Positions 1 through 64,000 are shown, counted from the first letter of the stretch. The stretch is DNA of 64,000 bases from an uncultured Ardenticatenaceae bacterium (GCA_964643965.1 CAZXVH010000001.1:54980-118979), one strand, 5' to 3'. The notes: generated by a model from the sequence alone, not told the origin. Numbers and translations: made by a program.

Positions 1-3000
1 GAAGCCTCCCAGGGTGACGTCCGCGCCTATCTCGATGGTCAGGGCGTTAAATACCAGAGCTTCTGGATTGACAACATCATTGCCGTCGAGAATTCTTCCC
101 GCAGCACCTTGAACGGGCTGCTCGCATTCAACGAAATCGAGATCATCCGCGCCCCGCGCCTGATGCACGTCATTGAACCTGAAAAAAGCGTGGATAGCGT
201 GAACGCCCCCAACGCCGTCGAACCCAATATCGCCCACGTCCTGGCCCCCAACGCCTGGGCCGATGGCTATCGGGGCGAAGGCATGGTGGTAGCCAACATC
301 GATACCGGCGTCCGTTCCACCCACCAGGCATTGGTGCGTCAATACCGCGGCACAAGCAGCGGCAGCCACAACTACAACTGGTTAGGCGCCGCCGGCGGCA
401 GCCTCACACCCGTCGATGACCATGGACACGGCACACACACCATGGGTACTATCGTTGGTGAAGATGCCACCTTGGCGAATCAGATAGGCGTGGCTCCTGG
501 CGCCCAGTGGATTGCTTGTGATGGCTGCGAAGGCACAGGCTGCCCCGATGTGGCCCTGCTCACCTGCGCTCAATGGATTGCTGCCCCTTATCCCATCGGC
601 AGTCCCGGTTCGCCCGACCCCAACATGCGTCCCAATGTGGTTAACAACTCTTGGGGCGACTGTGGTCAGAGCTATGACAATTGGTATGAAGGCTCGATTA
701 CCGCCTGGCACGCGGCCGGTGTTTATCCGGTGTTTTCTAATGGCAACGCCAGCAACTGCGGCTATCCGGCTCCTCCCGGCTTAAACACCGTCGGTAATCC
801 GGCACGCTCCGGTAATGTCACCGGGGTTGGCTCTTCCGGTAGAGACAATGGCTTGTACGCCACCCATTCCAACTGGGGTCCTACCGACAATCCGGACACC
901 GTCAATCCGCAGCCCGGCTGGGCGGATTTGAAGCCTCAAGTCTTAGCCCCCGGCGTGAATATTCGTTCCAGCACACCCGGCAGCGATACCGAATACCAGG
1001 GTGGTTGGAGCGGTACGTCTATGTCTGCGCCGCACGTCACCGGCTTGGTGGCCTTAATGATGCAGGCTGGCTCCTGTCTGGTTGACGACTACGCCGCGGT
1101 AGAAACCATCATCGAGAATACGGCCACCCCTATTTACTATAATGATGGCAGCGGCGTCCGCTGGCCCAATTACGCCACCGGTTGGGGTGAAATTAACGTA
1201 GAAGCGGCCGTGGAGGCAGCCTCCACCGCCTGTGGTCCAGACTTTAAAATAGGAGCTGCGCCGGCAGAGCTGGCTGTTTGTGTCCCGGATGACGCTGTTT
1301 ACAATGTCACCGTAGATCACCTGAGCGGTTTTAACGGCACAGTTGCTTTCACGGCCGACGTACCGGCCGGCGCCTCTGCTTCTTTTGTGCCATCTTCGGT
1401 AGTTACGCCCACCACGCAGAGCGTCTTAACCATAGACACTGCGGCCGCAGCGCCCGGTTCCTACACGGTAGTTATCACCGGTACCTCTGTGCCCACGCCT
1501 ACACATTCCACCAGCGTTGGCCTGGATTTGTATACCGTCAGCCCGGCAGCCACCACGCTCACCACCCCCGCGGACAATGCGGTGGATGTGCCCTTGATGC
1601 CTACGTTTAGCTGGACGGCCGTGGCTCAGGCCGGCAGCTACTACCTGGAAGTAGCCACCGATGCTGCCTTCACCAATGTCGTTTATACGGCCACCGTGGC
1701 CGGCGCCAGCCACACCATGACTGGCATGAATCTGGATGCGGATACGCTTTACTACTGGCGCGTTAGTGTGACCAACGCCTGTGGTTCGAGCGCCTACTCT
1801 CCCGTCTACAGCTTCACCAGCGTACTGCTGTTGTGCAGTACACCCAACGTGGCCATCCCAGACAACACCACCATTTACGATACGCTGACCAGCGGCCGTC
1901 CGGAACCGCTGGCGGATCTCAATGTGTCTGTAAAGATTAACCATACCTGGATTGGTGACCTGGATATCGTGCTGACCCATCAGGACACCAGCTCCCAGGC
2001 TGAACTGCTGCCCGTGAGCTTTTCTTGCAGTGGCGACAACATTGACGCCACTTTCGATGACGAAGCGGCCAATCCCATTACCTGCGTTTCTAGCGCTGTG
2101 CCCGCTCTCAGCGGTGATGTGCGGCCCAGTGGCAACCTGGGAGTTTTCGATTACGAAGCGCTGGCCGGCGCCTGGCAGCTCGCTGTGCATGATGGCGCGG
2201 GCGGCGATTCAGGGACATTGGTGGAGTGGTGCCTGGAACCCACATTTGCTGTGGGCGTAGGCGCTGTGGCTGGCACGGTGACGGATGCCAATACGACGGA
2301 TCCGATAGCAGGCGTCTCTGTGACATTAGATGACGGCGTCAATACCTACAATGCCCTGACCAATGGCGCCGGTGAATATAGCCGGGCTACGGGCAGTGGT
2401 ACCTATACGGTAACGGCCGCTCTCACCAACTATGTCACCGCTCAAGCCACCGGCGTCACTGTCACCGGCGGCGTGACCACCACCCAGGACTTTGCCCTGG
2501 ACGCCGGCCAACTCACCAGCGACGCGGATGACTTTGCCGCCTCTATAGACCTGGCGACCTCTATCACTCTGCCCTGGAACCTCTCCAACACGGGTACAAC
2601 CACCGCCACCTATGATATTCGCATCATAGACAATGGTTACAGCCCTAGCGCCGCACCCCAGGCAGGTGAAGATGTCCTCGTTGTAGCGGTGGATTCTGCT
2701 GCTGCTACTGCTATGGAAACAGCCCTCACTACCCTGGGCTACACCTATCTACGGGTGTCGTCTACCGTATTCCAGGGCATGACAGTACCGGATTTGTTGG
2801 CTTACCAGGCTGTGTTCCATACCGGAAGCGCCTCTGCGGCTGCCAGCCAAAATCTGATCATGGCCTACCTGGATGCTGGCGGCGCTTTCTACATCTCTGA
2901 CAATGACTTCGGCTATTTTAATGGCACGACCACATTGTATCAGACTTACTTGCAGTCAACTTTCGTCAGTGATAATCCAGGCATTGATATTCTTGAAGGC

Positions 3001-6000
3001 GAAGACTTTATGACCGGTCTGACGATTGATATTTCTGCTGACCCTTGGCCAGACGACTTTACTGTCAACGCTGAAGGGACACGCATACTGCGTTATCAGG
3101 CTGGCAATGCGGCTGGTGTGGCTGTAGACCGCCTCGGCTATAAAGCGGTCTACACCTCCTTTGACTTCGACGATATGGCGACGGCGACTCAGGAATTAGA
3201 TGTCATGACGGCCGTTACCAACTTCTTGATGAACAGTGGCCCGTTCTGGCTCTCGACCGACATTGAGGATGGCGTGTTAGCCATGGGCGCGGATCAGGAT
3301 ATCGTGGTGACGATGGACGCCAATCAGGTCGCCCTGGCTGGCAAATATTACGCTAACCTGGTAGTGCGCAACAACACTCCCTATGGCGACCTGGTGATTC
3401 CGGTGACGATGACAGTGGGCTGCCCCACCTGTGGTACGCTGGCGGGTGACATCACCGACGCCTTCACCAGCGATCCCTTGGTGGCTGCGATACAAATCAC
3501 CAATACGAGCAGCTTTGATTACACCATCAATGGCAGCAGTTATTCCATTGATCTGCCTCCCGATATCTACTATCTCTCAGTCACGGCCCCTGGCTATTTG
3601 TCGGAAACGGCAACGGCCGTTGTCACCCAAGGCGTGACTACCACCACCGATTTTGACCTGACGCCTGCTTTTGCCGGACTGGTTTACAGCCCGCCGGAAA
3701 TTGAGGAGTACATGGAAATCGGCGAGATGGTAACGAACACGGTAACTGTCACCAATACCGGCACCATCGACCTGGACTTCAATGTCAACATTGGCGGCTT
3801 TGGCGGCCCTGGTTTGTTGAGCGTGCAGAAAGTGGCAAGCAATCTGGCTGAGGCTCGCCTTCGGTCGGCTCCTGCCGCCATCACCTCTGCCGACGACTGC
3901 GCCGCGTATGAAAATTACGCCGGTCGGGAACCAGAGGGTTATGCTGAATTCTGCCTTACTGACAAATCCCTGCTCAACGAACTCCCCTCAGCCGATATTC
4001 TGGCGCCGACAGATACCGGCTATGCCCAAGATATTGGTTACATTTCCGATAACTTTGTCTCCTTTACTCTAAACAACTTCACCGGACAAACCGTTCTCGG
4101 AACCAGCACCAATGTCTATTACGGCATGGACTTCGATCCCAGCGCCACTACCTTGTACGCCCTGGAAAATGCGACTGCACAGCTGGGTACGATCAACACA
4201 GCCAATGGCGCCTTTACGCCGCTGGTGGCGGCGCCGGCTCCTGGAGGCAGTTGGACGGGTTTATCTATTGATCCCACCGATGGTACGTTCTATGCGTCCA
4301 CGGCGACTGGTCTCTATACCTTGAATCCGACGACCGGCGCTTCCACCCTGGTGGGCAACTTTACTGGCCCCACCTTGATGATCGACATCGCGGTTGGCCC
4401 AGATGGAATGATGTACGGCCATGCCATCGACACAGATGCCATCTATACCATCAACAAAGCCACCGGCGCCAGCACCCTTGTTGGCCCGACCGGATACAAT
4501 GCAAACTTTGCCCAAGGTATGGACTTTGACAATGGTGATGGCACACTCTACATCTTCCTCTATCAGGGCAGTGGCGCCAATGTATACGGCACTGTCAACC
4601 TGAGCACAGGTGCGGTAACGCCGCTGGCGACCAGCGCCCCGCAAGGCGAGTTTGAAGGAGCTATCGCCGTACCGGGCAGCGCCGGACCAACCAACTGGGC
4701 GTATACGGATAACTTCACCGGCGCCACTGTTTTGCCTGGTGAAACCGTTACGTTTGATGTGGTCTTCGACGCCACGTCGCTGTTCCAACTCGGCGATTAC
4801 ACGGCCGATTTGAGCTTCAGCGGCAACTTCAACAACATGGTTCCCACCATGCCGTTGACGATGCACCTCAGTTGCTCCACTTGCGGTATTCTGGAAGGTG
4901 ACATCACGGACGCTGACACCAGCGACCCGTTGGTGGCCGACATTAATATCACCGGGCCTGGCGGTTTCGATGTGACCATAACCGATTCCAGCTATCAATT
5001 GGCTGTGACTGATGGCGGTTACACCATCACCGTTTCGGCCGCTGGTTACTTGAGCCAAACGGCGACGGTAACGGCCGTTACCAATACCACCGTCACCACC
5101 GACTTCGCCCTGCGGCCGGCCGAAGCCAACATCTCCGTAGACCCGCAAGCCTTTGATGTGACACTGGCTCTAGGCAATACGGCGACTTATCCGCTGGACA
5201 TCATCAATGATGGCGCGGTAGCTACAGACTTTGAACTGCGCGAGCAGCCGGTAACCGTTCGCGGCCCTCTGGCCGACCTAATCATCGATGGCAGCTTTGA
5301 AGCAGGGACACCCAATCCCAACTGGACTGAAGCCTCAACTAACTTTGGCACACCGCTGTGTGATGCAGTCAGCTGCGGTACTGGTGGCGGCACTGCCGGC
5401 CCCCATACCGGCAATTGGTGGGTCTGGATGGGTGGTATCGGCGCTCTGGAAGAGGGTTCCGTGGCTCAGGATGTGGTTATTCCGGTAGGTACGGCAGATC
5501 TTTCCTTCTACTTCTGGATTGGCACCACTAGCGGCTCAGCTTCTGATTACTTCAATGTGCAGATCGATGGCACGGAAGTATTCCGCGCTGGCGCCGACGA
5601 GCAGGCCAGTTACAGCAGCTATACCCTGGTTAATGTAGATGTGAGCGCTTACGCTGATGGCAACAGCCATGAGATTAAGTTCTACGGATACACGAACAGC
5701 GCATCTGCTGTCAACTTCAATCTGGACGACGTGGTTTTGGAGTCGACTGAGGGTAGTTTGGATGTGATCTGGCTCTCGACAAACCCCATCACCGGCACGG
5801 TAGCCGCCGATTCTGTCTTCACCGCGGATGTGATCTTTGATTCCACGGTGTTGACCCAGACGGGCGTCTATAATGCCATCTTGAAAGTATTGACCGATGA
5901 TCCGGTGAATGGCACGATCAACGTACCGATCACACTCACGGTTACGGCCGTTCCTAACTATGGCGTAATACTGGCGCCGGCCACAGACGCCATGTCCGGT

Positions 6001-6312: not shown

Positions 6313-6354
6313 TGGCAAAGCAGTAACGGCCGTTGTCAATCATGATGACTGAAT

Positions 6355-6443: not shown

Positions 6444-8123
6444 CTACTTTTGCAGTTTAGACCAGGTATCGCGCAACCCCACCGTCTGGTTAAAGACCAG
6501 GCGGTCAGGCGTTGAATCCTGATCCACCACATAATAGCCCTGGCGCATAAACTGGTAGCTGTCGTCGATTTTGGCTGCCGTCAGATTGGGTTCCACCATA
6601 CAGTCGGTGAGTATTTCCAGGGAATGGGGATTGAGGTTGACGGTAAAATCTTCGCCAGCCGGGGTCTCGTTGGGGTTGGCTGTGGTGAACAGATGATCAT
6701 AGACGCGCACTTCGGCGGGAATGGCGTGTGGGGCGGAAACCCAATGCAGCGTACCTTTCACTTTACGGCCGTCCGGTGGGTTGCCGCCGCGAGAATCAGG
6801 ATCGTAAGTGCAGTGCAGCGCCGTAATATTACCAGCCTCATCCTTGATCACTTCGTCACAGGTGACGAGATAGGCGCCCAGCAGTCGCACCTCGCGTCCC
6901 GGCGCCAGGCGGAAGAATTTACCCGGCGGCTCTTCCATGAAATCTTCTTGCTCGATGTAAATTTCACGGGAAAAGGGTACCACCCGCGTTTCGTTGTTAT
7001 CTTTATCTTGAGGATGGGTGGGCACTTCAAATTCCTCAACCATATTTTCCGGATAGTTGGTGACCACGATTTTCAAGGGACGCAGCACGGCCATGGCGCG
7101 CGGCGCGTTTTGGTTGAGATCGTCACGCAGCACATGTTCCAGCATTTCAATATCTACGACGCTGTTGGCTTTGGAGACGCCAATGAGATCGGTGAATTTG
7201 CGCATGGTTTGCGGCGTGTAACCGCGGCGTCTCATGCCGCGAATGGTGGGCATACGGGGATCGTCCCATCCGTTGACGTGGCCTTCTTCTACCAGGCGGC
7301 GCAGTTTGCGCTTGCTCATGACGGTGTAGGTGATGTTGAGCCGGGCAAACTCGATCTGCTGCGGGGCGTAGATGCCCAGATTTTCGATGAACCAGTCATA
7401 AAGCGGGCGGTGGTCTTCAAACTCCAGGGTGCAGATAGAGTGGGTGATGCGTTCGATGGAGTCTGATTGGCCATGCGCCCAATCATACATGGGATAGATG
7501 CACCATTCGCTGCCGGTGCGCGGATGTTCGGCGTGGAGGATGCGATAAAGAACGGGATCGCGGAAGTTGATATTGGGCGAGGCCATGTCAATTTTGGCCC
7601 GCAGCACACGAGAACCATCCGGGAATTCTCCCTTCTTCATGCGTTGGAACAGGTCAAGATTTTCGGCGATGGGGCGATCCCGGTAAGGGCTGTTTTTACC
7701 CGGTTCGGTAAGCGTGCCCCGGTATTCGCGGATTTCGTCGGCGGTCAAGTCATCGACGTAGGCTTTGCCCTCTTGGATGAGCTGGATGGCCCACTTATAA
7801 AGCTGCGGGAAGTAGTCGGAAGCGAAAAACAGCCGATCTTCCCAATCGGCGCCGAGCCATTTGATGTCGTCCATGATGGCGTCGATGAATTCCTGCTCTT
7901 CTTTGAGGGGATTGGTGTCATCAAAGCGCAGGTTGAATTTGCCGTTGTAGTCTTGGGCAATGCCATAATTGAGCAAGATGGATTTGACGTGACCGATATG
8001 CAGATAACCATTTGGTTCTGGGGGGAAGCGAGTATGAACCCGGCCTTGAAAACGGCCGTTTTCGTTATGCTCATCAATAATATTGCGGATGAAGTTGGAG
8101 GGGGTTGTACCTTCGTCACTCAT
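6444..8123 (-). CDS. glnS: Glutaminyl-tRNA synthetase
   Basis: 559 aa; class I HIGH motif ([11 protein letters not shown]), KMSKS-type VMSKRK, GlnRS-like N-terminus [11 protein letters not shown] and C-terminal anticodon-binding region. Confidence 0.9.
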
Positions 8124-8507: not shown

Positions 8508-8643
8508 GATTTCCCTCCAGAATAGTGGTGGCAAGGTAGATTAAAAGTAAGGCGAACCTATGCCAAGTGCGGAATTATAGCTGAGGCAGGGGAGGTGGGC
8601 TAATTGGAGAGGGGTGGGGGGAAACGGCCGTTTACATCTTTCT

Positions 8644-9211: not shown

Positions 9212-10060
9212 ATGACCCAAAAAGATATTTTTCAAGACAAAAATTACTTACGAAATCAGCAGTATCAAGACAGTCACAACCTGGACGCTCGCGCCAATTT
9301 ACACCGCCTGTACAGCAGCAGCCCCCTGAACTGGCAAGAGTGGGTGTTTGACCAGATGGCGCTTCAGCCGGGCATGACCGTGTTGGAATGTGGCTGTGGT
9401 CCCGGTTGGCTGTGGCGGGAAAACCTGGCTCGTATCCCGGCCGGCTGCCAGATCACCCTCACTGATTTTTCCGAGGGCATGGTGGCTGAAGCGGAAGCGG
9501 CGCTGGCCGGCAGCAGCCCTGATTTTCGCTTCCAAACGATGAACATCGAAGAAATCCCCTTTGTCGATGACAGCTTCGATGTGGTGGTGGCCAACCATAT
9601 GCTCTACCATGTGCCCAACCTGACGGCGGCTCTGGCGGAGGTACGTCGGGTATTGAAGCCAAACGGCTCCTCTGACAAACTTAGAGCAGGCCGTTTCCTG
9701 GCAGCCACCAACGGCGCAGACCATATGCGTGAAATCAAGGAGTTGGCGGTAAAATTTGCTCCGGAAACCGCCCGGTTAGAATGGCCGTACCTCACGTTTC
9801 TCCTGGAAAACGGCCGTTCGCTCCTTTCGCCTTTCTTTGAACAGATAGACCTTTTGCGCTACGAAGACAGCCTGGAAGTAACTGCGGTACAACCACTTCT
9901 GGCTTACATACAGTCGATGAGTTTAGTGCAGGCATTAGGAGAGGATGGGGAAACGGCCGTTGCCCAAAGCGAGGAGTTGGCAGCCTACATCGCCCAAGAA
10001 ATCGAAACAAACGGCGCTTTCCACATCACCAAAGCCAGCGGTCTCTTCACCGCCTATTAG
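9212..10060 (+). CDS. Class I SAM-dependent methyltransferase
   Basis: Motif I VLECGCGPGW, post-motif VVANHMLYHVP; GGAGA RBS upstream. Confidence 0.8.
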   Translation: MTQKDIFQDKNYLRNQQYQDSHNLDARANLHRLYSSSPLNWQEWVFDQMALQPGMTVLECGCGPGWLWRENLARIPAGCQITLTDFSEGMVAEAEAALAGSSPDFRFQTMNIEEIPFVDDSFDVVVANHMLYHVPNLTAALAEVRRVLKPNGSSDKLRAGRFLAATNGADHMREIKELAVKFAPETARLEWPYLTFLLENGRSLLSPFFEQIDLLRYEDSLEVTAVQPLLAYIQSMSLVQALGEDGETAVAQSEELAAYIAQEIETNGAFHITKASGLFTAY

Positions 10061-11614: not shown

Positions 11615-11747
11615 GGAAGGCTCCTTTCTAATAGGTAAATTATCTAATCTATGACGCACTGCATCATTATAACATAAACGGCCGTGCTTATGAAAGCCAC
11701 TTACATTGTGTCGATACGATCTACAAGATCGTTTTACAAAAACGCCC

Positions 11748-13954: not shown

Positions 13955-13990
13955 CGAGTGGCGGGTGGCAAGTGACAGGTAAAGGACACG

Positions 13991-20659: not shown

Positions 20660-20810
20660 ACGGCCGTTAAGGGCATAGTTGTTATCATCTTTTTCTTTTT
20701 AAATAACTCTTCCCTGAGGTATAATTGATATTATACTGCTTTAAGTTTCAGTCCATTTTAGGACAAAACATCGAATGACGTACTAAAGTTTCGCAAAGGG
20801 AAATTAATAA

Positions 20811-44373: not shown

Positions 44374-44440
44374 CGGCCGTTTTCCACCCACTATCCCCCC
44401 ACAAACAAACTTACTAACCACCCAAGAAGAAGGAGAACTG

Positions 44441-50760: not shown

Positions 50761-52530
50761 CTATCCTCTCGTTTTTGGGGGAGACCAGATGTCGAACAAA
50801 GCTGTGGTGGAGCCGGAGATGAGGCGGGTGGCGGGGCCGGCGACGGTTTGCCAGCGGAAGTCCCAGTTGTCCGCAGAGCCGAGGGCGATGATGAAGGTTT
50901 TGTCGTTGAGCCATTGGGCGGCAACGGCCGTTTTGCCTTCTGCCATATCGATAAGCAACGGCTCTTCACCGGCCTGGCCTATTGCATAAGTTCCTGGCCC
51001 AGTATAAACGAATTGTTTTCCCGCCGGATTCCAGCCAAAAAAGAGGTCGGCGGCATCGCCATAAGGCGTCATGTTTTGTCCATCTCCGGCGCCGATGACA
51101 AGCGCCGATTCTCGCCCTGTCAGTTGGCGTATATAGCCTGCCTGTTCTCCTGAATCTGACCAGATAACGGGCGAAAAGATGATGTTGCCGGGTAAAGTGA
51201 TTAACGATTCTGCTTTGCCGGTGGCGGGAATCCGCCATAAATTGGCTTCTGGCTTTGTATATGGCTCTGGTGAAGAGAGCGCCGCCTGGGCAAAAGCGCC
51301 GCCATCCAGCCATTGCAACCAGGGATAGAAGGCGAATTCGCTGGCGGTGTTGACGGCCGGGAAGCGGATGACGGTTTCGGCTTGGCTGCCGTCTAAATTG
51401 GCGCGGAGTACGGCCGTTTTCTGCCCCAGCAGCGCTACATTATCCGCTGAAATGGCAAATGAACCGCCGCCTTCACCGGCGGGGAACCGTTCTGTCAAGA
51501 CGCCGTCCAGCGTTACCGTCCATAAATCTTCCTGACTGCTGAGTCCTGGCCCACCGGCCCGGTCAATGATAGTGGTGTTAAAGGCCAGCGTTTTGCTGTC
51601 AGCCAACCATTGCAGCTGCCCAATCAGCGCCGCCAGATCGTCCGCGGGCGACATTTCCGCCAGGTCAGCGGCGTCAACCAACGTCTCGTTCTGGCCACTC
51701 TGCATATCGACGATGTGGAGCGCAGCGCTGACGTCTTGTTGGGTGATGTAGGCCACATAACGGCCGTTTGGCGAAATCAACACATTTCCTACCTCTTCAG
51801 CGTCAACCAGCCAGGTTGGTTCAGCGGTGCTGGTTTCCGCCAGCGGCAGCAGCCATAAAGCGCCTTTGTCGGCGTAAACCATTTTGGCGTTGGCGAGAGG
51901 GAGGCTGTTGGTAAGCGCTTCTTCACTGGCAGATGTATCTGTGGCGGCGGCCTCGCTGCTGGTGGCAGAGGTATTGGCGTCAGAAACGGCCGTTGCCTTA
52001 CTCGTTGGCTCAGGGGTGGGAGCAGCGGTAGGGGTGGGCGGCGCATCCAGAGAACTGACGTTTTCCATGTTGCTGACGCTGGTATACTCTGGCCCGCCGG
52101 ACACCCAGCAGGTATTGCCTTCCACTCGTTCCGGACAGACGATTTTCCACCAGCCGCTCTGTGCATGACGCCCCAGGACAACGGCCGTTTCCCCTTTGAG
52201 TAAGAAGCTGTCCCGCGTGTATTGCACTCCCGGTCCCAGGCGAATATTGACATCTACCAATGCCCGCAGCGTGGCGCTGCCAGCAACTGGTTCGATAACG
52301 GCCGTTGGCGGCGTGGTGGGCATATTCCCGGGCAGGGTGACAGTGGGGGCGATATGTTGGATAACGGCCGTGGGCAAACCGCTTAAATCGCCATCGCCCC
52401 CGGTTTCCTCGCCCGGCAAACCGGGCCGCGGCAGCGTTGGCGCCAATGGCTGCCCGGCAAAAGCATTACAAGCCAACGAAACCAAAACCAATAACCCCAC
52501 AAAAAGCCACAAATAACGGTGTCGTTTCAT
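50761..52530 (-). CDS. Secreted protein with SH3b-like domain and beta-propeller-like C-terminal region
   Basis: Signal peptide MKRHRYLWLFVGLLVLVSLACNAFAG; SH3b-like VNIRLGPGVQYTR..GWWKI; low-complexity linker; repetitive propeller-like remainder. Confidence 0.6.
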   Translation of the reverse strand: MKRHRYLWLFVGLLVLVSLACNAFAGQPLAPTLPRPGLPGEETGGDGDLSGLPTAVIQHIAPTVTLPGNMPTTPPTAVIEPVAGSATLRALVDVNIRLGPGVQYTRDSFLLKGETAVVLGRHAQSGWWKIVCPERVEGNTCWVSGGPEYTSVSNMENVSSLDAPPTPTAAPTPEPTSKATAVSDANTSATSSEAAATDTSASEEALTNSLPLANAKMVYADKGALWLLPLAETSTAEPTWLVDAEEVGNVLISPNGRYVAYITQQDVSAALHIVDMQSGQNETLVDAADLAEMSPADDLAALIGQLQWLADSKTLAFNTTIIDRAGGPGLSSQEDLWTVTLDGVLTERFPAGEGGGSFAISADNVALLGQKTAVLRANLDGSQAETVIRFPAVNTASEFAFYPWLQWLDGGAFAQAALSSPEPYTKPEANLWRIPATGKAESLITLPGNIIFSPVIWSDSGEQAGYIRQLTGRESALVIGAGDGQNMTPYGDAADLFFGWNPAGKQFVYTGPGTYAIGQAGEEPLLIDMAEGKTAVAAQWLNDKTFIIALGSADNWDFRWQTVAGPATRLISGSTTALFDIWSPPKTRG

Positions 52531-52768: not shown

Positions 52769-52781
52769 CGGACAAAACGCC

Positions 52782-54092
52782 ATGCAATTTCGTGAATTCC
52801 TTGAACAAATCGCTGAGAGCGGCGATCTCATCACCATCAGCAAACCGGTTGACGCCACCTTTGAAGTGGCCAACGTGGCCCACGCCCTGGAAGGCCGCCT
52901 CGTCCTCTTCGACAATATCAAAGCGCATCCCGGTTGGCGCATCTGCGCCGGCCCCTGCTCTGACCGTCGTTACTTCGCCATGAGTCTTGGCGTTTCTATT
53001 GATGGATTGGTCCATCGCCTGGCTGACGCCCTGGAAAATCCGCAAACGCCCCCCGTCGTGGAAACCGCGCCTTGCCAGGAAGTGATCACCGAGGATGTGA
53101 ATCTCTATGATCTGCCTATTTTGCTCCATCTGCCCGCAGACGCCGGTCACTACATTGCCAGCAACGTGGTCATCATCCAGGACCCTGATTTGGGGCGCAA
53201 TATGTGTTATCATCGCCTGCTGCGACTCGACGAGAAGCGCTTTGCCGCCCGCATTGTGGAAAATCGGGGAACCCATATGGCCCTCAAAAAAACGGACGGC
53301 GATCTACCGGTGGCTATTTGCATCGGCGTCTCCCTGGCGACCCATTTGGCGGCTTCGATGTCGCCGCCGCCAGAGGTGGATGAACTGGCGGTGGCCCATG
53401 CCCTGGCCCCTACGCCGCTGGTCAAATGCTTCACCAACGATTTGCATGTCCCGGCCGACGCTGAAATTGTGTTGGAAGGGCGCATCACTCAGCAGAAACA
53501 CGCCGAAGGCCCCTTCATGGATCTGACGGAAACGATGGATATTGTGCGCGACCAGCACATCATCGAGATTGATTTGATCACGCACCGCCGAAATCCTATT
53601 TTCCACGCCTTGCTGCCCGGCGGTCTGGAGCATAAGCTGCTCATGGGCATGCCCCGTGAACCCACTATTTTCAAAGAAGTCAACAAGGTGGTGCGCTGCA
53701 CCGGTGCGGCCATTACGCCGGGCGGCGCTTCCTGGCTCCATGCGGTGGTGCAAATTGATAAGCAGGGGGCGGAAGACGGCCGTTTAGCTATCGAAGCGGC
53801 TTTCAAAGGGCATGGTTCCCTCAAACATGTGTGGGTGGTCGATACCGACATCGACATCTACGACCCGGCGCAGGTGGAATGGGCGCTGGCCACCCGCTTC
53901 CAGGCTGACAAGGATTTGATGGTATTTGAGAAGATGCCCGGCAGTTCGCTAGACCCTTCTGGCAGCCACGTTCCCGGTCAGAAAAGCCTCACCGCCAAGA
54001 TGGGCCTGGATTGTACTATTCCCTGGGGCGGGGCAGAGGCTCAATTTAAACGGGGTCAATACGGCGCTGTGGATTTGAGTGAATACCTGTAG
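52782..54092 (+). CDS. UbiD-family (prenyl-FMN dependent) decarboxylase, divergent
   Basis: Start moved to MQFREFLEQIAESGDLITISKPVD (typical UbiD N-terminus). 436 aa. EGPFMDLTETMD replaces the canonical EGPFGE.TGYY motif as I recall it. Confidence 0.75.
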   Translation: MQFREFLEQIAESGDLITISKPVDATFEVANVAHALEGRLVLFDNIKAHPGWRICAGPCSDRRYFAMSLGVSIDGLVHRLADALENPQTPPVVETAPCQEVITEDVNLYDLPILLHLPADAGHYIASNVVIIQDPDLGRNMCYHRLLRLDEKRFAARIVENRGTHMALKKTDGDLPVAICIGVSLATHLAASMSPPPEVDELAVAHALAPTPLVKCFTNDLHVPADAEIVLEGRITQQKHAEGPFMDLTETMDIVRDQHIIEIDLITHRRNPIFHALLPGGLEHKLLMGMPREPTIFKEVNKVVRCTGAAITPGGASWLHAVVQIDKQGAEDGRLAIEAAFKGHGSLKHVWVVDTDIDIYDPAQVEWALATRFQADKDLMVFEKMPGSSLDPSGSHVPGQKSLTAKMGLDCTIPWGGAEAQFKRGQYGAVDLSEYL

Positions 54093-54197
54093 TGGCGCGT
54101 AACAAAAACTTGCTACCCGCCAGCCACCACTTGCCACCTGTAATTTAAACATACCATCGTGGTAACGGCCGTTCCCCGTTAACGAGTGTGAGAAATT

Positions 54198-55820: not shown

Positions 55821-55821
55821 G

Positions 55822-56256
55822 ATGGATTGTATTGTATGCGCCACACGGGGCGGAGAAGGCAGCCGGGCCGCACAAATGGCGGCGATTGAGCTGGCGCAGC
55901 AGTTTGGCCTGCCCCTGGTATTTTTGTATGTGACGGATCCGGGGAGTCTGGGTGAGGTGGATGAGCTGTTGCTAACGGCCGTTCGCCAGGAATTGAACTG
56001 GATGGGTAAAACATTGCTGCAAGTGGCTAAAGGGCGAGCGGAAGCGGCCAACTTGAAGGCTTCCGTGGAGATTCGGGTAGGCAATGTGCAGGAGGAGATC
56101 GAGCAGTTTTTGCGTGAAGTCCACGCTTCCGTTTTAATATTGGGCGCGCCGCGCGGGGTGACGGCCAATGTGTTTGGCGATGATGCGGTGGAACGTTTTG
56201 CCCAAACGATTCAGGCTGATACCGGTGTTGAAGTGATCGTGGTGCGTCCTGATTGA
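55822..56256 (+). CDS. Universal stress protein (USP)-like protein
   Basis: Start at MDCIVCATRGGEGS; USP-like alpha/beta pattern ...LVFLYVTD...VLILGAPRG...VEVIVV. Confidence 0.6.
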   Translation: MDCIVCATRGGEGSRAAQMAAIELAQQFGLPLVFLYVTDPGSLGEVDELLLTAVRQELNWMGKTLLQVAKGRAEAANLKASVEIRVGNVQEEIEQFLREVHASVLILGAPRGVTANVFGDDAVERFAQTIQADTGVEVIVVRPD

Positions 56257-56521: not shown

Positions 56522-58336
56522 ATGTCAACAATTATGCAACTGAACGAAGATCAACAAGCGATGCTGAACGGCGAACGAGGCGCGGCCAAACAGATGGGTA
56601 TGCGCCTGGTTTTAGACCTGGCCGCTGCTGCCGGGGCCACTGAGCTTATTCCCATCCAAAGCGCCCATATTTCCGGCGTGTCGCCGCTGACGGGCGGGCT
56701 GGGGCTGCGCCAATTTCTGGCGAAACTCTCCGGTGATGAACAAGCAAAAGTGGCTGTGCCGACTACACTTAATGCGGCCGGCTGTGACGAAGACCAGTTT
56801 GATGAGATGAAAATCGTCGTGCCTGACTTCCGGGAACACAATCATGAAATTGTGGCCTATTATACGCAGTTGGGCGTCCAGCCGACCCAATCTTGCACCC
56901 CGTATGAATGGGATGGCGTCGTCACCGAAGGGGTGGCGGCGTGGGCGGAATCGAACGCCATCTGCTTTGGCAATTCTTACTGCGGCCTGCTGACCAACCG
57001 CGAATCGGGGCTATCAGCGCTGGCTAGTGCGCTGACGGGTTACACGCCCAAATATGGCTTGCTGGCCGACGGCGCTCGTCAGCCCAATTTGCTGGTTGAG
57101 GTGACGGCAACAATGAGCGACCCCGCAGACTTTTCGATTTTGGGTGACTGGATTGGCATGCAGCGCAAACCATCCTGGAAGACGCCGCTTGGCCCCATTC
57201 CTCTGATTAAAGGGCTGCCGGCCGATTTAGACCATGAACAGCGCAAAGCGTTAGCGGCGGCCGCTGCCAATTACGGCTGTCCCCTGCTCTACATCGACGG
57301 CGAAGGGGATATTCCGGCCGGTGATATGCAAGATGAACTGGTATTTAGCCAGGTTGAATTGCAAAAACGATATGATGAGCTGCGTCCGCGGGTTCCCGTT
57401 TCTCTCGTCACTATTGGTTGTCCCCAGGCGTCGGTGGGAGAATTACGGGCAGCGGCCGTTCTGCTCAAAGGTAAAACGCTGCCCGCCGACGCCCCGCCCT
57501 TGTGGGTCTTCACTTCCTCTCACAACAAAGCCATCGCCGAAAAAACGGGCCTCGCCGACATCATCCGCGACAGCGGGGCGCTGCTGCTGGAAAACACCTG
57601 TCCCGAAGTGGTGCCTTACGACCAAAGCTGGGTACACCACATCCTCACCGACTCCATGAAAGCGGAGCATTACATCAAGTCTGGCTTAAACGGCATTCAT
57701 ACGTCGGTGATGACGGTGGCGGATTGCATAAGCGTGGCAAGTGGCGAGTTGCAGGTGGCGGAAGAGAAATTTACGAGTAACGATTTACGAACTCGTCCTG
57801 AGCTTGTCGAAGGATTGACGATTGAGGGCGAACAGCTAACAGATGAGGGTGTGGCGCACAGGGGGGAAACGGCCGTTTTGCAAACTGGCTCTTTTGAATC
57901 TGCGGGTCATGGATTGCCCTCGCAGGCGGATTTTAGGGTGAAGGGGCAGGCGTTTGTGACGGATACGCCGATTACGCTGTTGGGTTTTGTCAATCGGGAA
58001 ACGGGGGTGATTGAAGAGCCGGGTCATCCGATGAATGGGCAGAGCATGGCGGACAAGATCGCCATCTTCCCCAAGGGCAGCGGCTCGACGGTGGCGCCGT
58101 ATGTGCTGCTGGAGTTATTCTATCGGGGCAAGGCGCCGCTGGCGATTGTGAACACGGATATCGACCAGCAAAGTGCGCCAGCCTGTTCGTTGGAAGGGAT
58201 TCCGTATGCGTACAGTTTTGATGGGGATGTGATCGGGGGAATCAACAATGGAGACACTATCGAGTTGAGGCGGGTGGGCGAGCAGGTGGTGGTGCGGGTG
58301 TTGGAGCGGGTGACGGGGGTGGTTGGTAATGGTTAA
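56522..58336 (+). CDS. Aconitase X (AcnX) with fused large (DUF521) and small/swivel (DUF126) modules
   Basis: N-terminus LNEDQQAMLNGERGAAKQMGMRLV...IPIQSAHISG typical of DUF521. C-terminus GQSMADKIAIFPKGSGSTVAPYVLLEL..GKAPLAIVN typical of DUF126. Roughly 45-aa linker. Confidence 0.8.
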   Translation: MSTIMQLNEDQQAMLNGERGAAKQMGMRLVLDLAAAAGATELIPIQSAHISGVSPLTGGLGLRQFLAKLSGDEQAKVAVPTTLNAAGCDEDQFDEMKIVVPDFREHNHEIVAYYTQLGVQPTQSCTPYEWDGVVTEGVAAWAESNAICFGNSYCGLLTNRESGLSALASALTGYTPKYGLLADGARQPNLLVEVTATMSDPADFSILGDWIGMQRKPSWKTPLGPIPLIKGLPADLDHEQRKALAAAAANYGCPLLYIDGEGDIPAGDMQDELVFSQVELQKRYDELRPRVPVSLVTIGCPQASVGELRAAAVLLKGKTLPADAPPLWVFTSSHNKAIAEKTGLADIIRDSGALLLENTCPEVVPYDQSWVHHILTDSMKAEHYIKSGLNGIHTSVMTVADCISVASGELQVAEEKFTSNDLRTRPELVEGLTIEGEQLTDEGVAHRGETAVLQTGSFESAGHGLPSQADFRVKGQAFVTDTPITLLGFVNRETGVIEEPGHPMNGQSMADKIAIFPKGSGSTVAPYVLLELFYRGKAPLAIVNTDIDQQSAPACSLEGIPYAYSFDGDVIGGINNGDTIELRRVGEQVVVRVLERVTGVVGNG

Positions 58337-58540
58337 TTGCAACGGGAGGAGTCATTATCCGTTTCTTGTTCTTAGTTGATTGTCAAAACGGCCGTTTCCT
58401 GGCAGGCAACTGACTAATCTTGAGTCCTCCGAAGAAAGCCCTTTTTTACCGCGGAGGACGCAGAGATCGCAGAGAGGTACTCTGGTTTTTTTAATTCTCC
58501 GCGCCCTCCGCGCTCTCTGCGGTTAGTTTTTTCGGTGCAG

Positions 58541-59293: not shown

Positions 59294-59559
59294 GATTTAT
59301 CAGGTATCCGGGCCAGGCCTTTCTCGGATACTCTGCTGGGGCCTGGTTTTCCATTTGGGGCTGCGGGCGTGTCTCCGACCGAGCCGCACAGCATTCAAGA
59401 GGGCAACCCTTCGCTGTTAGAATCTGCTCTGCACCTTTGTTGTCATTCCCACTGATGCAAAATTGGTTGGTATGGCCTGGGTTTCATGCCACGTAGAGCG
59501 TGGAACGAGATAAAGATCATCGCGGAAAGTAAACGGCCGTTTCCCACCCATCAAGCAAA

Positions 59560-59590: not shown

Positions 59591-59610
59591 AGTAACGGCC
59601 GTTCCCCTTA

Positions 59611-60347: not shown

Positions 60348-60498
60348 CAATAACGGCCGTTTTTCAATGGAAGGAAACTAAAGTTTTTTCTCCGCTAACT
60401 GAATAAACGCTTCCGCCCCTTCCTTTCTGCTCCCCGTTTCTGCTTTCTGCCTTTGTCGGACTGTTGAGGTAAAATGGAAGGCTTGGAAGAGGCTGAAA

Positions 60499-61055: not shown

Positions 61056-64000
61056 ATGAACAGAATTGAGATCGCCCGCCGCTTTGCCGCTTATATTCCC
61101 GTGACCCTGGCCCGCCAGATCATGGAAGTGGGGCTGCCGGAACCGGGTATACCGCACCCCTTTGCCGCCGCCACCCTGTTCTCCGACATTTCTGGTTTTA
61201 CACACATGTCGGAGGAGTTGGCGTCTGACGGGCCGCGTGGCGCGGAAGAACTCAACCGGGTACTGTTGACCACCTTTACGGCCATGATCGATCTGATTCA
61301 TGAGATGGGCGGCGCGGTCAGTCATTTTTATGGGGATGCCATGTCGGTCTATTTTCCCGAGACGGAAGAGCAGGATGCGGCGCAGCGGGCGTTGGCCTGC
61401 GCCCAGACGATGCAATTGTTGATGGCCGCCAGTTTTAGCCGGGCGGTGACGAACCGGCCGCCAGGCAAAGAGCCTATTTTCCCGCTGACGATCAAAATTG
61501 GCGTGGGTTACGGCCGTTGTCAGGAAATTGTGGTGGGGGATGCAGCCAAGAATTTGGAGTTTGTGCTGACGGGAACGGCCGTTGATGAAGCCGCCGCCGC
61601 CGAGAGAAAAGCACAGGCAGGGGAAGTAGTCGCCAGCGCCCAGGTTTTGCGCCGGGCGGAGCTGCCAGCCGCCCCGGAATCAGGGCAGTTCCGGGTTGTC
61701 AGGGAACCTGTTCCCGCGCCCGTTTCCCGGTCTATTTTGGATTGGTCTCTGTATGATGAGACAGCGCTGATGTACCTGGAGTCGGCGGCGGCCGTTTTTA
61801 TCCCGGAAGCCATCGGGCAGCGTTTAACCGAGGGCGGCAGCGGCGAGATTGCTGAACACCGGCCGGTGACGAGCCTCTTTGTCGATTTTGCCTTTGTGAG
61901 GGATGGGGATGAGCAGTCTGATGTGGCAACGGCCGTTCAAGGAATTCTGCTGCATGATTATTTTCTCTGGGCCGGTAAAATCGTGGCCCGTTTTAGCGCA
62001 GAAAACGCCCGCATCAACCGCCTCCTCACCGGTGACAAGGGCAACCAACTGCACATCATCTTTGGCGCGCCGGTGGCCCCGGACGCGCCAGAGCAGGCCA
62101 TCCGCTGCGCCCTGGCTTTGCTGCGCGAAAAACCGGCCTATATCGCCTCCCAGCGCATCGGCCTGGCGGCGGGCAAGGTGTTTGCCGGGCCGGTTGGCTC
62201 TAGCGCCCGGCGCGAGTACACGGTGGTGGGGGATATGGTCAACTTGTCAGCGCGGCTGGCCCAGGCTTGCCCGGACGACTGCATTCTCACCAACCATATC
62301 ACCGCCGGCCGCGTGGCAAACTGGATTGAATTTGAAGTGCTGCCGCCCATTGCCTTAAAGGGCAAACAAGAGGCGGTGACGCCCTATCGACCCATCGGCG
62401 AACGCACCAGGCTGACCCAATTGCAAGTTTATTTTAACCAGGGAAAACGGCCGTTAGTAGGCCGAGAGTCAGAATTAGATTTACTTCTGGGTGGCATGGA
62501 TGCGGCGCTGCACCATGTCGGTGGCATCGCCGCCATCTTGGGCGCGGTAGGCGTCGGTAAAACCCGCTTGTTGGCGGAAGGCATCCACTATTGGTTAGAG
62601 GCAGGCGGCGCCGGCCTGGTCGGCATAGCCCAGCAGCATACCGCCGATGTGCCTTACGCCCCCTGGTTGAGTATTTTCCGCGACTTTTTTAATCTGCGTG
62701 TTGATATCAGTTTGGCGGTGCAGGCGGAACAGGTGGCGGCTCAAACCAAAGCTTTGCTGCCAGATGTGGGTGACGATGTGGCTTTATGGGGCGAAGTCTT
62801 GGGGCTGCCTGTTCCCGGTCAAGAACAACTGGCGCATATGTCGGCCGAGGTGCGGCACGCTCGCTTTATGGCATTGGCGCGACGCTGTTTCATCGCCTTT
62901 AGTGAGCGCACCCCCTTACTCATCATTTTGGAAGACACACACTGGGCGGATCAATCCAGCCTGGCCCTTTTAGATGAAGTCACCAAAGGCATTGAAGATC
63001 ACCGCCTCTTTTTTGCCGTCACCTTTCGGCTCGTCGATGATCTGACGGTAGAGATGTTGGACCGTCCTGCTTGTGTGCCTATTTTGCTCTCCGATCTGCC
63101 GCCGAACCATGCCCGAGACTTGTTGTTACACCTGGTCGGCGCCGAGCGCTTACCCCTGGCGGTGGAGCAGCATCTGGGGCTGCGAGACCGGGAAGGGGGA
63201 GACAGCCCGGTCAGCCCGCTGTTTCTGGAAGAGTCAGTGAATGTGCTGTTCAGCGCCGGCATTTTAGAGCGAAATGGTTCCCTGCGGGTGCATGAGGAGC
63301 GACTCCAGGAATTGCAAATCCCGGATACGATTCATGGGCTGCTGCTGGCGCGATTAGATCGGCTGCCGCCGGCCGGCCGGGACTTACTGCAAGTGGCTTC
63401 GGTGATTGGGCGGCAGTTTGCCTTAGAGCCGCTGTTTAACATTGCCCAGAGCGCCTCCACACAGCAAGTTTCCCAGTTGATGGAAGCGATGTCGGCTGAA
63501 GACATCACTCGCCTGGTAACCACGGATCCGGAGTGGATTTATCTGTTCCAACACGCGCTCACGCATGAAGTGGCCTATGAAAGTTTGCCCTATGCCCGGC
63601 GTCAGGCGCTGCACCACGCCCTGGCCGATTGGCTGGTGGTTCAACACAGGGACAATTTACGGTCATACTACCCCATCCTGGCTTACCATTACAGCCAGGC
63701 GGATAACCATGAGGCGGGTTTAAAGTATGCCCTGGGCGCGGGTCTGGATGCCCGAGATTTGTTCTCGAATCAAGAGGCGTTGGGCTTTTTTAACCTGGCG
63801 GAGAAACATTTGTTGGCCTTGGGCGAGGAAGAGAATTGGGAAACGGCCGTTGAGCTTTATCTGGCTCGTGGAGAAGTTTTGATTTTAACAGGAGATTTCA
63901 ATAAAGCTGTAGTCGATGCGGAAATAAGTTTAGCGCTTGCAGAAAAAAATCTTGTTCCGCAACAACAAGCACAAGCTTTGAATTTGCTTGCAGAGATAAA
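61056..64000 (+). CDS. Adenylate/guanylate cyclase domain(s) - AAA ATPase - TPR regulator, 3' end cut by window edge
   Basis: Not in the ORF track because no stop is reached. My translation from ATG 61056 gives MNRIEIARRFAAYIP...ATLFSDISGFTHMSEEL (cyclase 1), VTSLFVDF...GLAAGKVFAGPVGSSARREYTVVGDMVNLSARL (cyclase 2), LVGRESELDLL...ILGAVGVGKTRLL (P-loop), LIIILEDTHWADQSS (Walker B). Confidence 0.85.
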   Translation, partial: MNRIEIARRFAAYIPVTLARQIMEVGLPEPGIPHPFAAATLFSDISGFTHMSEELASDGPRGAEELNRVLLTTFTAMIDLIHEMGGAVSHFYGDAMSVYFPETEEQDAAQRALACAQTMQLLMAASFSRAVTNRPPGKEPIFPLTIKIGVGYGRCQEIVVGDAAKNLEFVLTGTAVDEAAAAERKAQAGEVVASAQVLRRAELPAAPESGQFRVVREPVPAPVSRSILDWSLYDETALMYLESAAAVFIPEAIGQRLTEGGSGEIAEHRPVTSLFVDFAFVRDGDEQSDVATAVQGILLHDYFLWAGKIVARFSAENARINRLLTGDKGNQLHIIFGAPVAPDAPEQAIRCALALLREKPAYIASQRIGLAAGKVFAGPVGSSARREYTVVGDMVNLSARLAQACPDDCILTNHITAGRVANWIEFEVLPPIALKGKQEAVTPYRPIGERTRLTQLQVYFNQGKRPLVGRESELDLLLGGMDAALHHVGGIAAILGAVGVGKTRLLAEGIHYWLEAGGAGLVGIAQQHTADVPYAPWLSIFRDFFNLRVDISLAVQAEQVAAQTKALLPDVGDDVALWGEVLGLPVPGQEQLAHMSAEVRHARFMALARRCFIAFSERTPLLIILEDTHWADQSSLALLDEVTKGIEDHRLFFAVTFRLVDDLTVEMLDRPACVPILLSDLPPNHARDLLLHLVGAERLPLAVEQHLGLRDREGGDSPVSPLFLEESVNVLFSAGILERNGSLRVHEERLQELQIPDTIHGLLLARLDRLPPAGRDLLQVASVIGRQFALEPLFNIAQSASTQQVSQLMEAMSAEDITRLVTTDPEWIYLFQHALTHEVAYESLPYARRQALHHALADWLVVQHRDNLRSYYPILAYHYSQADNHEAGLKYALGAGLDARDLFSNQEALGFFNLAEKHLLALGEEENWETAVELYLARGEVLILTGDFNKAVVDAEISLALAEKNLVPQQQAQALNLLAEI

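Follow-up and report, generated by a model that had tools for sequence, protein, structure and literature searches.

A HIP1-like highly iterated palindrome in a Promineifilaceae clade of Chloroflexota and its phages

We analyzed a 64,000-nt stretch of DNA from an uncultured Ardenticatenaceae bacterium (GCA_964643965.1 CAZXVH010000001.1:54980-118979; 53.9% G+C), hereafter the window, which carries a short palindromic word in great abundance. An earlier note on this DNA described a hyper-abundant 10-nt palindrome, AACGGCCGTT, and likened it to the cyanobacterial highly iterated palindrome HIP1 and to DNA uptake sequences. The abundance was borne out, but the basic unit is the 8-mer ACGGCCGT, and the 10-mer is a flank variant of some lineages. 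The 8-mer is specific to a Promineifilaceae clade of Chloroflexota, where it occurs about once per kb whatever the G+C content. It is a dispersed single-copy word that arises by base substitution rather than insertion. It prevails over synonymous codon preference and, where the protein tolerates it, over the amino-acid sequence, and once present it is preserved as DNA in spite of synonymous drift. The word is missing from new imports and shared by the phages of the clade. It shows every testable feature of a highly iterated palindrome (HIP) and is not HIP1 itself.

An exact string search of the window for ACGGCCGT and AACGGCCGTT returned 50 copies of the 10-mer, at precisely the 50 starts that had been listed by eye, with none missed and none extra, and 71 copies of the 8-mer core (1,109 per Mb). 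The A and T flanks accompany 50/71 cores; the other 21 are the "two dozen" cores with one changed flank mentioned in the earlier note. Against the 50 observed 10-mers, 100 dinucleotide-preserving shuffles gave an expectation of 0.09 (maximum 2) and Markov models of orders 0-3 one of 0.07-0.30; the same models predicted 1.2-2.9 cores, and orders above 3 merely regenerate the ACGGCCGT word itself. In 310 kb of clade DNA pooled from 14 genomes, we counted 388 cores where 7.1 were expected, an approximately 55-fold excess. The enrichment does not extend to other GC-rich palindromes of the window: among all palindromes of 4-10 nt, ACGGCCGT/AACGGCCGTT is the sole enriched one, the runner-up 10-mer having 3 copies and the runner-up 8-mer 11. 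An assembly artefact is ruled out: two independent assemblies of public read sets match the window with 100% identity across 8.8 and 6.9 kb, including the sites, and 13 further assemblies from different projects carry ACGGCCGT.

Most of the copies reside in genes. We called 49 open reading frames (ORFs) by greedy longest-frame selection, and Pfam supports most of the long ones. The ORFs contain 57 cores (1.04 per kb), that is, 80% of the window copies lie within genes, in frame and without indels, and 14 lie outside (about 1.5 per kb). In the clade, the density is 1.27 per kb in coding and 0.99 per kb in non-coding DNA; the non-coding to coding ratio of 0.8-1.4 in window and clade indicates no clear intergenic excess. 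The genic copies are found on both strands and in all three frames, 32 as ACG-GCC-GTn (Thr-Ala-Val, TAV), 20 as nAC-GGC-CGT (Asn/Asp/Tyr-Gly-Arg) and 5 as nnA-CGG-CCG-Tnn (x-Arg-Pro-x), which agrees with the recurrent peptides previously noticed, as does the overlap of the 10-mers at 20659 and 44372 with stop codons. ORF 50761-52530(-) contains 7 sites (3.95 per kb).

Codon choice does not account for these numbers. A synonymous-codon shuffle, preserving every protein and the codon usage, left 6.0 +/- 2.2 cores and 0.87 +/- 0.95 10-mers in genes, where 57 and 38 were observed, and neither this model nor the Markov models predict the count. The word spells 32/35 of the TAV tripeptides in the window as ACG-GCC-GTn, ACG making up 27% of Thr codons and GCC 49% of Ala codons overall. 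The peptides themselves are over-used relative to amino-acid composition, with 35 TAV against 9.2 expected (3.8-fold) and 13 Asn-Gly-Arg (NGR) against 2.8 (4.6-fold). Synonymous choice is therefore fixed near saturation, and the protein sequence is distorted. A terminator role of the 14 intergenic copies was ruled out, as none of them forms a terminator-like hairpin with a T-run and their folds are weak.

To define the distribution of the word, we gathered relatives via LeuB (ORF 44441-45517), the closest of which are Chloroflexota assemblies. The lineage of the window is present in many public metagenomes, an identical LeuB occurring in 42 collection blocks. The clade set consists of the window and 13 loci (L001-L007, L083-L088). 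It includes seven species representatives with 73-88% LeuB identity, among them Candidatus Hadersleviella danica (NCBI family Promineifilaceae), closer metagenomic relatives with 91-93% identity on contigs labelled Promineofilaceae, and three further relatives with 76-79% identity. ACGGCCGT is the top 8-mer palindrome in 13/13 relative loci, at 0.8-2.5 copies per kb and a G+C content of 44-58%. The 73 more distant LeuB loci, which include Planctomycetota, Pseudomonadota and three other Chloroflexota (Anaerolineales, Tepidiformaceae, Chloroflexia), have at most 3 copies each, near chance level.

The flanks of the core differ between genomes. An A precedes the core (position -1) at a frequency of 0.82 in the window and 0.95 in L006, compared with 0.21-0.44 for L001, L003, L005 and L007, and the 10-mer is therefore a lineage-specific variant. 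Coding and non-coding copies alike also favor, more weakly and symmetrically on both sides, A at -2 and G or purine at -3 to -5, giving an extended preference of roughly G-G-R-A-ACGGCCGT-T-Y-C-C. The longer perfect palindromes quoted in the earlier note, GAAACGGCCGTTTC at 27295 and the 20-nt GTGGAAACGGCCGTTTCCAC at 45395-45414, are present. However, complementarity between left and right flanks showed no significant excess over independent half-sites at offsets 2-6 and a marginal excess at offset 1 (P=0.04), so that the half-site preferences (A at -1, G at -3/-4) act independently and the longer palindromes are mostly their by-product. With flank complementarity near the half-site expectation, we ruled out a requirement for a hairpin or cruciform.

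We examined the recognition shape by counting one-off variants in the pooled 310 kb. Variants altered at position 1 or 8 are enriched 1.7-3.7-fold, whereas those altered at positions 2-7 amount to 71 observed against 98.7 expected (0.72-fold). CGGCCG with neither the left A nor the right T has 170 copies, and all CGGCCG outside the exact 8-mer number 355 against about 207 expected; the bare hexamer is not enriched, and the enrichment belongs to the 8-mer. The spacing of sites in the window fits an exponential distribution (Kolmogorov-Smirnov P=0.19). Only very short gaps are scarce in the pooled clade, those below one tenth of the mean making up 6.1% against 9.6% expected (P about 0.01), and regular spacing was ruled out.

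Alignment of orthologs, as the earlier note had proposed, revealed how sites are gained. Synteny with the window extends over 35-56 kb in L001, over the leu operon in L002 and L004, and over most of the region in L083-L085. At 75-81% DNA identity, 11/16 to 14/21 of the window sites occupy the same position in a relative, and site sharing runs up to 14/15, compared with 14-22% for ordinary 8-mers. At sites encoding the same amino acids, the two genomes share the word in 11/12, 14/14, 14/15 and 11/11 cases, compared with 25-38% for control 8-mers in the same frame. Sites confined to one lineage depart from the orthologous sequence at 1-7 bases (mostly 2-6); no indels are involved, and the changes bring amino-acid replacements, to T-A-V from E-A-V, R-A-I, S-A-I and D-V-V, and to N-G-R from K-G-K, E-G-E and D-D-K. 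In leuB, the site at nt 960 is found in 14/14 clade genomes, and TAV stands there in 7/73 outgroups; at nt 75, TAV is present in 6/14 clade genomes and 0/73 outgroups. The comparison with orthologs and outgroups thus indicates that the sites are derived, made by substitution at tolerant positions and afterwards held fixed. The nearest non-identical genomes share about 80% DNA identity and the read-set assemblies are 100% identical; relatives that are either identical or about 80% identical are therefore unsuited to polarising mutations.

Genes of atypical composition, recognized by low G+C at third codon positions (GC3), contain 0 sites in about 5.8 kb of the window. The siteless genes include a restriction-modification (R-M) pair at 20811-22366 (GC3 26-38%), a nucleotidyltransferase/HepT pair at 43157-43775 and small ORFs at 8238-8991. 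The phages of the clade, on the other hand, share the word. We scanned viral contigs (IMG/VR) for two 10-mers within 30 nt and obtained 32 loci where a rough estimate gave about 2. About 20/32 of these have 1-3.7 cores per kb, and in phage structural genes the density is 0.8-3.1 sites per kb, with 1.2-3.1 for terminase, portal and capsid genes, the TAV, xGR and xRPx frames being those also used in the host; all these densities are upper estimates, biased upward because the loci were selected on the word. The genes encode the terminase large subunit, portal, head morphogenesis and major head proteins (L095 3102-12917), a tape measure protein (L111 1595-4081) and a head protease/capsid fusion (L120 5510-8206), and the presence of the word in them is solid.

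The same two-10-mer pattern in metagenome contigs yielded at least 120 loci, and 72 among the matches listed are word-rich (419 kb). The match at L126 5366-5446, a tandem array of about 5 units of ACAACGGCCGTTATTGG/TG containing the 10-mer on a contig of 36% GC, was rejected as a false positive of the pattern scan that bears no relation to the word of the clade. Two loci carry dense intergenic arrays of the word with asymmetric flanks. In L200 (600-1434), 16-18 copies are packed into about 830 nt upstream of a ParA/AAA_31 ATPase gene. In L227 (8320-8850), AAAACGGCCGTTTCYCC is repeated at least 10 times in one orientation at intervals of about 55 nt, with no partition gene adjoining. Both arrays look like centromere or iteron sites.

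A full-text literature search found no description of ACGGCCGT or of any HIP outside cyanobacteria. Delaye and Moya reportedly described HIP1 abundance in 2011 as exclusive to cyanobacteria. Of the two comparisons offered initially, HIP1 fits in every feature tested, whereas the uptake-sequence analogy fails in features discussed below. The nearest known counterparts of the word are HIP1 (GCGATCGC) and other, alternative HIPs of cyanobacteria (Elhai, 2015, PMC4390886; Xu et al., 2018, PMC5861425). Like HIP1, ACGGCCGT is a perfect palindrome of 8 bp whose inner hexamer has the form CG..CG (G-CGATCG-C vs A-CGGCCG-T). HIP1 reaches 300-2,700 copies per Mb and a 55-228-fold excess in Elhai's measure; ACGGCCGT reaches about 1,100-2,500 copies per Mb and about 55-fold. 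Both lie scattered as single copies within and outside coding regions, spread by substitution and alter peptides in doing so, have one-off variants mainly at the first and last positions with an inner hexamer that is not enriched by itself, carry genome-specific extensions, and are conserved between genomes above control octamers. The differences lie in the sequence (GCGATCGC has 0 copies in the window, and CGATCG is absent from it) and in the phylum, Chloroflexota instead of cyanobacteria. The solitary methyltransferases DmtA and DmtC modify the inner sequence of HIP1, whereas the three methyltransferases seen in the window and about 0.9 Mb of word-rich DNA all belong to unrelated R-M pairs. 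HIP1 shows a periodicity of site density at 10-90 kb (Xu et al., 2018); at the local scale covered by the 64-kb window, the spacing of ACGGCCGT is near-exponential. Phages, whose structural genes also carry ACGGCCGT, are unmentioned in the two HIP1 papers (PMC4390886, PMC5861425).

The explanation we favor, at a little less than an even chance, is a methylation-coupled repair ratchet as in Elhai's model for HIP1. A reader protein present in all these cells would recognize the CGGCCG core with flanking A/T and have a weaker preference for purine or G 2-4 bases further out, which would drift between lineages. The reader would most likely be a solitary cytosine methyltransferase, its mark coupled to strand-biased mismatch correction or recombination; that the word is methylated is what we infer by analogy. 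Near-cognate sequences would be converted to the word and existing copies protected, until neighbors are about 1 kb apart. Such a bias would act on any DNA long replicating in clade cells, phages included, and would not yet have acted on recent imports. A ratchet predicts the one-off pattern observed, as well as the lack of hexamer enrichment, an equal density in coding and non-coding DNA, the scarcity of very close neighbors and the dependence on residence time. The same pattern of one-off variants at outer positions in HIP1 was used to argue for a methylation-directed repair ratchet (Elhai, 2015).

Several observations weigh against the ratchet. C-to-T one-off variants show no specific deficit in the 310 kb (transitions 0.83-0.88, transversions 0.5-0.84), and there is therefore no signature of very-short-patch repair. 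The spacing in the pooled clade is not significantly more regular than random (coefficient of variation 0.93 vs 0.97), the dense arrays in L200 and L227 do not fit a saturating ratchet, and the densities in phage loci are inflated by their selection. Even for HIP1, the repair ratchet is only a hypothesis, and Xu et al. (2018) argue that HIP1 is conserved beyond what biased repair would yield. Furthermore, we did not find the reader in the window and about 0.9 Mb of word-rich DNA, where all three methyltransferases are in R-M pairs and no Vsr-like or other candidate reader was seen.

The methyltransferase of the window (20811-21797, +) is a beta-class enzyme of 38% GC with an SPPY motif, which presumably indicates N4-cytosine specificity. 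A BglII-family endonuclease (21794-22366, +) directly follows; the pair has 38-39% GC and 0 word copies and is probably a recent import. Its BglII-family partner, low GC and the depletion of AGATCT (2 vs 8.7) rule out this enzyme as the reader. The L116 methyltransferase was ruled out because it pairs with an MvaI/BcnI nuclease beside an IS1595 transposase. The enzyme at L186:10143-11186 is a 5-methylcytosine methyltransferase whose best solved relative over the full length is M.HaeIII; it adjoins a BsuBI/PstI-family nuclease, so it probably reads CTGCAG, and it was likewise ruled out. The GIY-YIG genes near leuB in L083 and L085 were also rejected, being YhbQ-like, absent from the window and not recurrent.

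Other 6-bp palindromes are depleted in the window, as seen for GGGCCC (0 observed/18 expected), CGATCG (0/14.8), TTCGAA (0/9), ACGCGT (0/8), TCGCGA (0/7), GAGCTC (0/6), CTGCAG (2/25), GTGCAC (1/8) and AGATCT (2/8.7); GGGCCC is depleted clade-wide (6 vs 152). The depletion suggests heavy long-term restriction pressure, the opposite of what is found for ACGGCCGT.

Rather than through repair, the word could have spread through the population by molecular drive as a mark of kin DNA. Like an uptake sequence or Chi, it would be effective when DNA enters the cell or recombines: DNA bearing it, perhaps only in methylated form, would be imported, escape nucleases or recombine more readily, and phages would profit from copying it. 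We consider this unlikely. As with the DNA uptake sequences (DUS) of Neisseria and the uptake signal sequences (USS) of Pasteurellaceae, the word occurs about once per kb, is clade-specific, sits in genes at tolerant positions where it biases peptides, and is absent from recently imported genes; its flank variants resemble the lineage dialects that are a feature of DNA uptake sequences. The high density in phage structural genes looks as if incoming DNA benefits, and if the word, host-specific and about 8 nt long like Chi, could protect or favor the DNA that bears it, its carriage by phages would be explained. However, known uptake sequences and Chi are asymmetric and orientation-dependent, whereas ACGGCCGT is its own reverse complement, so that an orientation bias is impossible. 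Unlike uptake sequences, it also shows no clear intergenic excess (clade 0.99 vs 1.27 per kb; window 1.5 vs 1.04) and no terminator-forming pairs, and it is abundant in phage genes. Chi, which is read by RecBCD/AddAB, is co-oriented with replication and enriched only few-fold; a 55-fold excess with amino-acid replacement is far above that level. To our knowledge, neither competence nor an uptake receptor is known in the Promineifilaceae group. As for HIP1, such a role has experimental support, methylated sites raising transformation by more than 100-fold at most and acting in a partly Chi-like manner (bioRxiv 10.1101/2024.09.10.611283), and a 2026 preprint proposes that HIP1 is a phylum-wide uptake signal (10.64898/2026.06.24.733823).

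It is improbable, in our view, that an abundant nucleoid-associated or segregation protein instead binds the word and that selection for chromosome organisation preserves it. The symmetric extended preference in coding and non-coding copies resembles the footprint of a dimeric protein, and the conservation above control 8-mers and the intergenic arrays, in L200 upstream of the ParA-type ATPase gene and in L227, would be in line with such a site. However, the segregation and occlusion sites parS, Noc, SlmA and matS number tens per genome, not thousands, phage structural genes have no obvious need for architectural sites of the host, no significant regularity appears at the 64-kb scale, and the L227 array does not adjoin a partition gene. 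For HIP1, a role in nucleoid structure is the one favored by Xu et al. (2018).

Two further explanations are effectively excluded. CGGCCG is a classic type II target (EagI/XmaIII), and the clade has many R-M systems, with three pairs seen and many 6-bp palindromes near absent; but a mere restriction target tolerated through methylation is very improbable, since restriction sites are avoided rather than enriched (GGGCCC, CTGCAG, AGATCT), the enrichment exists only in the 8-mer context, and phages would avoid such a site, not accumulate it. The chance is negligible that the word is a by-product of composition, codon usage or selection for TAV and NGR, or that it is a miniature mobile element or an artefact of assembly or vector: most copies do lie in two reading frames that encode common residues, but the copies exceed the codon-aware and Markov nulls by factors of 10 to 700, their density is as high in non-coding as in coding DNA, three frames and both strands are used, most outgroups lack TAV at the LeuB positions, independent assemblies agree, and gains without indels are not insertions, the 8-10 nt, mostly genic unit also being unlike the longer imperfect, intergenic, insertion-spread palindromes of repetitive extragenic palindromic (REP) and miniature inverted-repeat transposable element (MITE) repeats.

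All sites of the window are listed in Table 1. Besides the word, the window contains other repeats. Intergenic short tandem arrays are located at 33788-33833, 46887-47018, 13989-14032 and 46766-46838. Their units include the heptamer CAGTGGA (complement CCACTGT), with 6.6 units after ilvN and about 19 between two phosphofructokinase (PFK) genes, CGCCACT (x6) and the octamer TAGTCGGG (x9); the arrays resemble the heptamer short tandemly repeated repetitive (STRR) sequences of filamentous cyanobacteria. A 34-bp unit, AATGAAAATGGAGCGCAGGCGTCTCGCCTGCACT, with a hairpin-forming inverted repeat, stands in three perfect tandem copies at 33909-34010, at or over the predicted ilvC start. The 1,367-residue STAND NTPase (nSTAND1) encoded at 14019-18122 (-) has about 13 WD40 repeats; its gene contains internal repeats of 126 nt and carries the word five times. 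Three adjoining genes of the PFK family (45578-50514, -) encode 388, 401 and 741 residues, the last with two PFK domains; the arrangement is kept in relatives, some of which lack one copy. The low-GC nucleotidyltransferase/HepT pair (43157-43775, +) is a toxin-antitoxin pair between ORF 42069-43067 and the ybaK-like gene preceding leuB, and it is also found in L084, between a TauE-family gene and leuB. Upstream of leuB, L083 and L085 have a histidine-kinase-like gene and the YhbQ-type GIY-YIG gene, whose protein has a repetitive C-terminal tail.

Table 1. The 71 sites of the window, from exact search and ORF frame. The strand is given as "." because the word is palindromic. 10-mer, AACGGCCGTT; core, ACGGCCGT with the sequence context in brackets.
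Form	Position	Strand	Location	Residues and relatives
core (GACGGCCGTG)	1615..1622	.	ORF 109-6312(+)	T-A-V
core (GACGGCCGTT)	3208..3215	.	ORF 109-6312(+)	TAV
10-mer	3612..3621	.	ORF 109-6312(+)	TAV
10-mer	5070..5079	.	ORF 109-6312(+)	TAV
core (TACGGCCGTT)	5944..5951	.	ORF 109-6312(+)	TAV
10-mer	6325..6334	.	intergenic, 14 nt past stop of ORF 109-6312	
core (TACGGCCGTC)	6765..6772	.	GlnRS-like ORF 6444-8123(-)	DGR
10-mer	8051..8060	.	ORF 6444-8123(-)	NGR
10-mer	8623..8632	.	intergenic	
10-mer	9809..9818	.	ORF 9212-10060(+)	NGR
10-mer	9952..9961	.	ORF 9212-10060(+)	TAV
core (AACGGCCGTG)	11678..11685	.	intergenic	
10-mer	12697..12706	.	ORF 12299-13954(+)	TAV
10-mer	13364..13373	.	ORF 12299-13954(+)	NGR
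10-mer	13520..13529	.	ORF 12299-13954(+)	NGR
10-mer	13889..13898	.	ORF 12299-13954(+)	NGR
10-mer	14589..14598	.	WD40/STAND ORF 14019-18122(-)	TAV
10-mer	15081..15090	.	ORF 14019-18122(-)	TAV
core (AACGGCCGTC)	15423..15430	.	ORF 14019-18122(-)	DGR
core (AACGGCCGTC)	15831..15838	.	ORF 14019-18122(-)	DGR
core (AACGGCCGTG)	16246..16253	.	ORF 14019-18122(-)	TAV
10-mer	18424..18433	.	ORF 18330-19604(-)	K-R-P-L
10-mer	18638..18647	.	ORF 18330-19604(-)	NGR
core (GACGGCCGTT)	19096..19103	.	ORF 18330-19604(-)	TAV
10-mer	19427..19436	.	ORF 18330-19604(-)	NGR
10-mer	20017..20026	.	ORF 19676-20659(+)	TAV
10-mer	20608..20617	.	ORF 19676-20659(+)	TAV
10-mer	20659..20668	.	overlaps TGA stop of ORF 19676-20659	
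10-mer	23111..23120	.	E1-alpha ORF 22581-23540(+)	TAV
core (TACGGCCGTT)	24267..24274	.	ORF 23554-24525(+)	L-R-P-L
10-mer	25379..25388	.	E2 ORF 24525-25781(+)	TAV
10-mer	25756..25765	.	ORF 24525-25781(+)	E-R-P-L
10-mer (GAAACGGCCGTTTC)	27297..27306	.	ORF 26641-28803(+)	TAV
10-mer	27613..27622	.	ORF 26641-28803(+)	NGR
10-mer (AGGGAAACGGCCGTTACCCT)	30867..30876	.	intergenic	
core (AACGGCCGTC)	34944..34951	.	ilvC ORF 33944-35059(+)	NGR; common to L002
10-mer	35576..35585	.	leuA-like ORF 35052-36833(+)	TAV; relatives E-A-V / E-S-V
10-mer	37002..37011	.	ORF 36823-37584(+)	TAV; L001 R-A-I
core (GACGGCCGTC)	37812..37819	.	leuC ORF 37648-39057(+)	R-R-P-S; common to L001, L002, L004
core (GACGGCCGTT)	39608..39615	.	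leuD ORF 39085-39756(+)	DGR; common to L001
10-mer	40406..40415	.	ORF 39792-41360(+)	TAV; core common to L001
10-mer	42798..42807	.	ORF 42069-43067(+)	NGR; core common to L001
10-mer	44056..44065	.	ybaK-like ORF 43897-44373(+)	NGR
10-mer	44372..44381	.	overlaps TAA stop of ORF 43897-44373	
10-mer	45400..45409	.	within 45395-45414 palindrome, leuB ORF 44441-45517(+)	TAV; core in 14/14 clade genomes
10-mer	46217..46226	.	PFK ORF 45578-46744(-)	TAV
10-mer	47162..47171	.	PFK ORF 47022-48227(-)	NGR
core (AACGGCCGTA)	47187..47194	.	ORF 47022-48227(-)	YGR
core (GACGGCCGTA)	48370..48377	.	ORF 48289-50514(-)	YGR
core (AACGGCCGTG)	49292..49299	.	ORF 48289-50514(-)	TAV
core (CACGGCCGTG)	49469..49476	.	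ORF 48289-50514(-)	TAV
10-mer	50923..50932	.	ORF 50761-52530(-)	TAV
core (TACGGCCGTT)	51410..51417	.	ORF 50761-52530(-)	TAV
10-mer	51759..51768	.	ORF 50761-52530(-)	NGR
10-mer	51985..51994	.	ORF 50761-52530(-)	TAV
10-mer	52180..52189	.	ORF 50761-52530(-)	TAV
10-mer	52297..52306	.	ORF 50761-52530(-)	TAV
core (AACGGCCGTG)	52364..52371	.	ORF 50761-52530(-)	TAV
core (GACGGCCGTT)	53776..53783	.	UbiD ORF 52662-54092(+)	DGR
10-mer	54164..54173	.	intergenic	
10-mer	55974..55983	.	Usp ORF 55804-56256(+)	TAV; L001 P-A-L
10-mer	57868..57877	.	AcnX ORF 56522-58336(+)	TAV
10-mer	58387..58396	.	intergenic	
10-mer	59532..59541	.	intergenic	
10-mer	59594..59603	.	intergenic	
10-mer	60352..60361	.	intergenic	
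core (TACGGCCGTT)	61510..61517	.	intergenic	
10-mer	61574..61583	.	ORF 61520-61813(-)	TAV
10-mer	61928..61937	.	ORF 61903-62358(+)	Q-R-P-F
10-mer	62446..62455	.	intergenic	
10-mer	63842..63851	.	intergenic	

HIP1 has been known for three decades, and its origin and function are debated between biased repair, nucleoid structure and a transformation signal. A second word that behaves alike, of different sequence and in an unrelated phylum, turns the single case into a comparison. We would suggest only tentatively, as a possibility somewhat on the doubtful side, that ACGGCCGT represents a second, independent origin of a HIP outside cyanobacteria, serving as a "self DNA" watermark of the clade read by a putative protein that steers repair, recombination and acceptance, copied by phages and concentrated by some mobile elements in arrays beside partition genes. 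Gene families common to both HIP-bearing groups and missing from HIP-free relatives are candidates for the reader; if the independent origin is true, comparing the repertoires of cyanobacteria and Promineifilaceae could reveal a reader that has been missed in 30 years. The methylation hypothesis is directly testable on existing long-read assemblies, and any model must now also account for the word in phage structural genes. In practice, the word could be used as a watermark for sorting the DNA of Promineifilaceae and their phages in metagenomes and for spotting recent imports.

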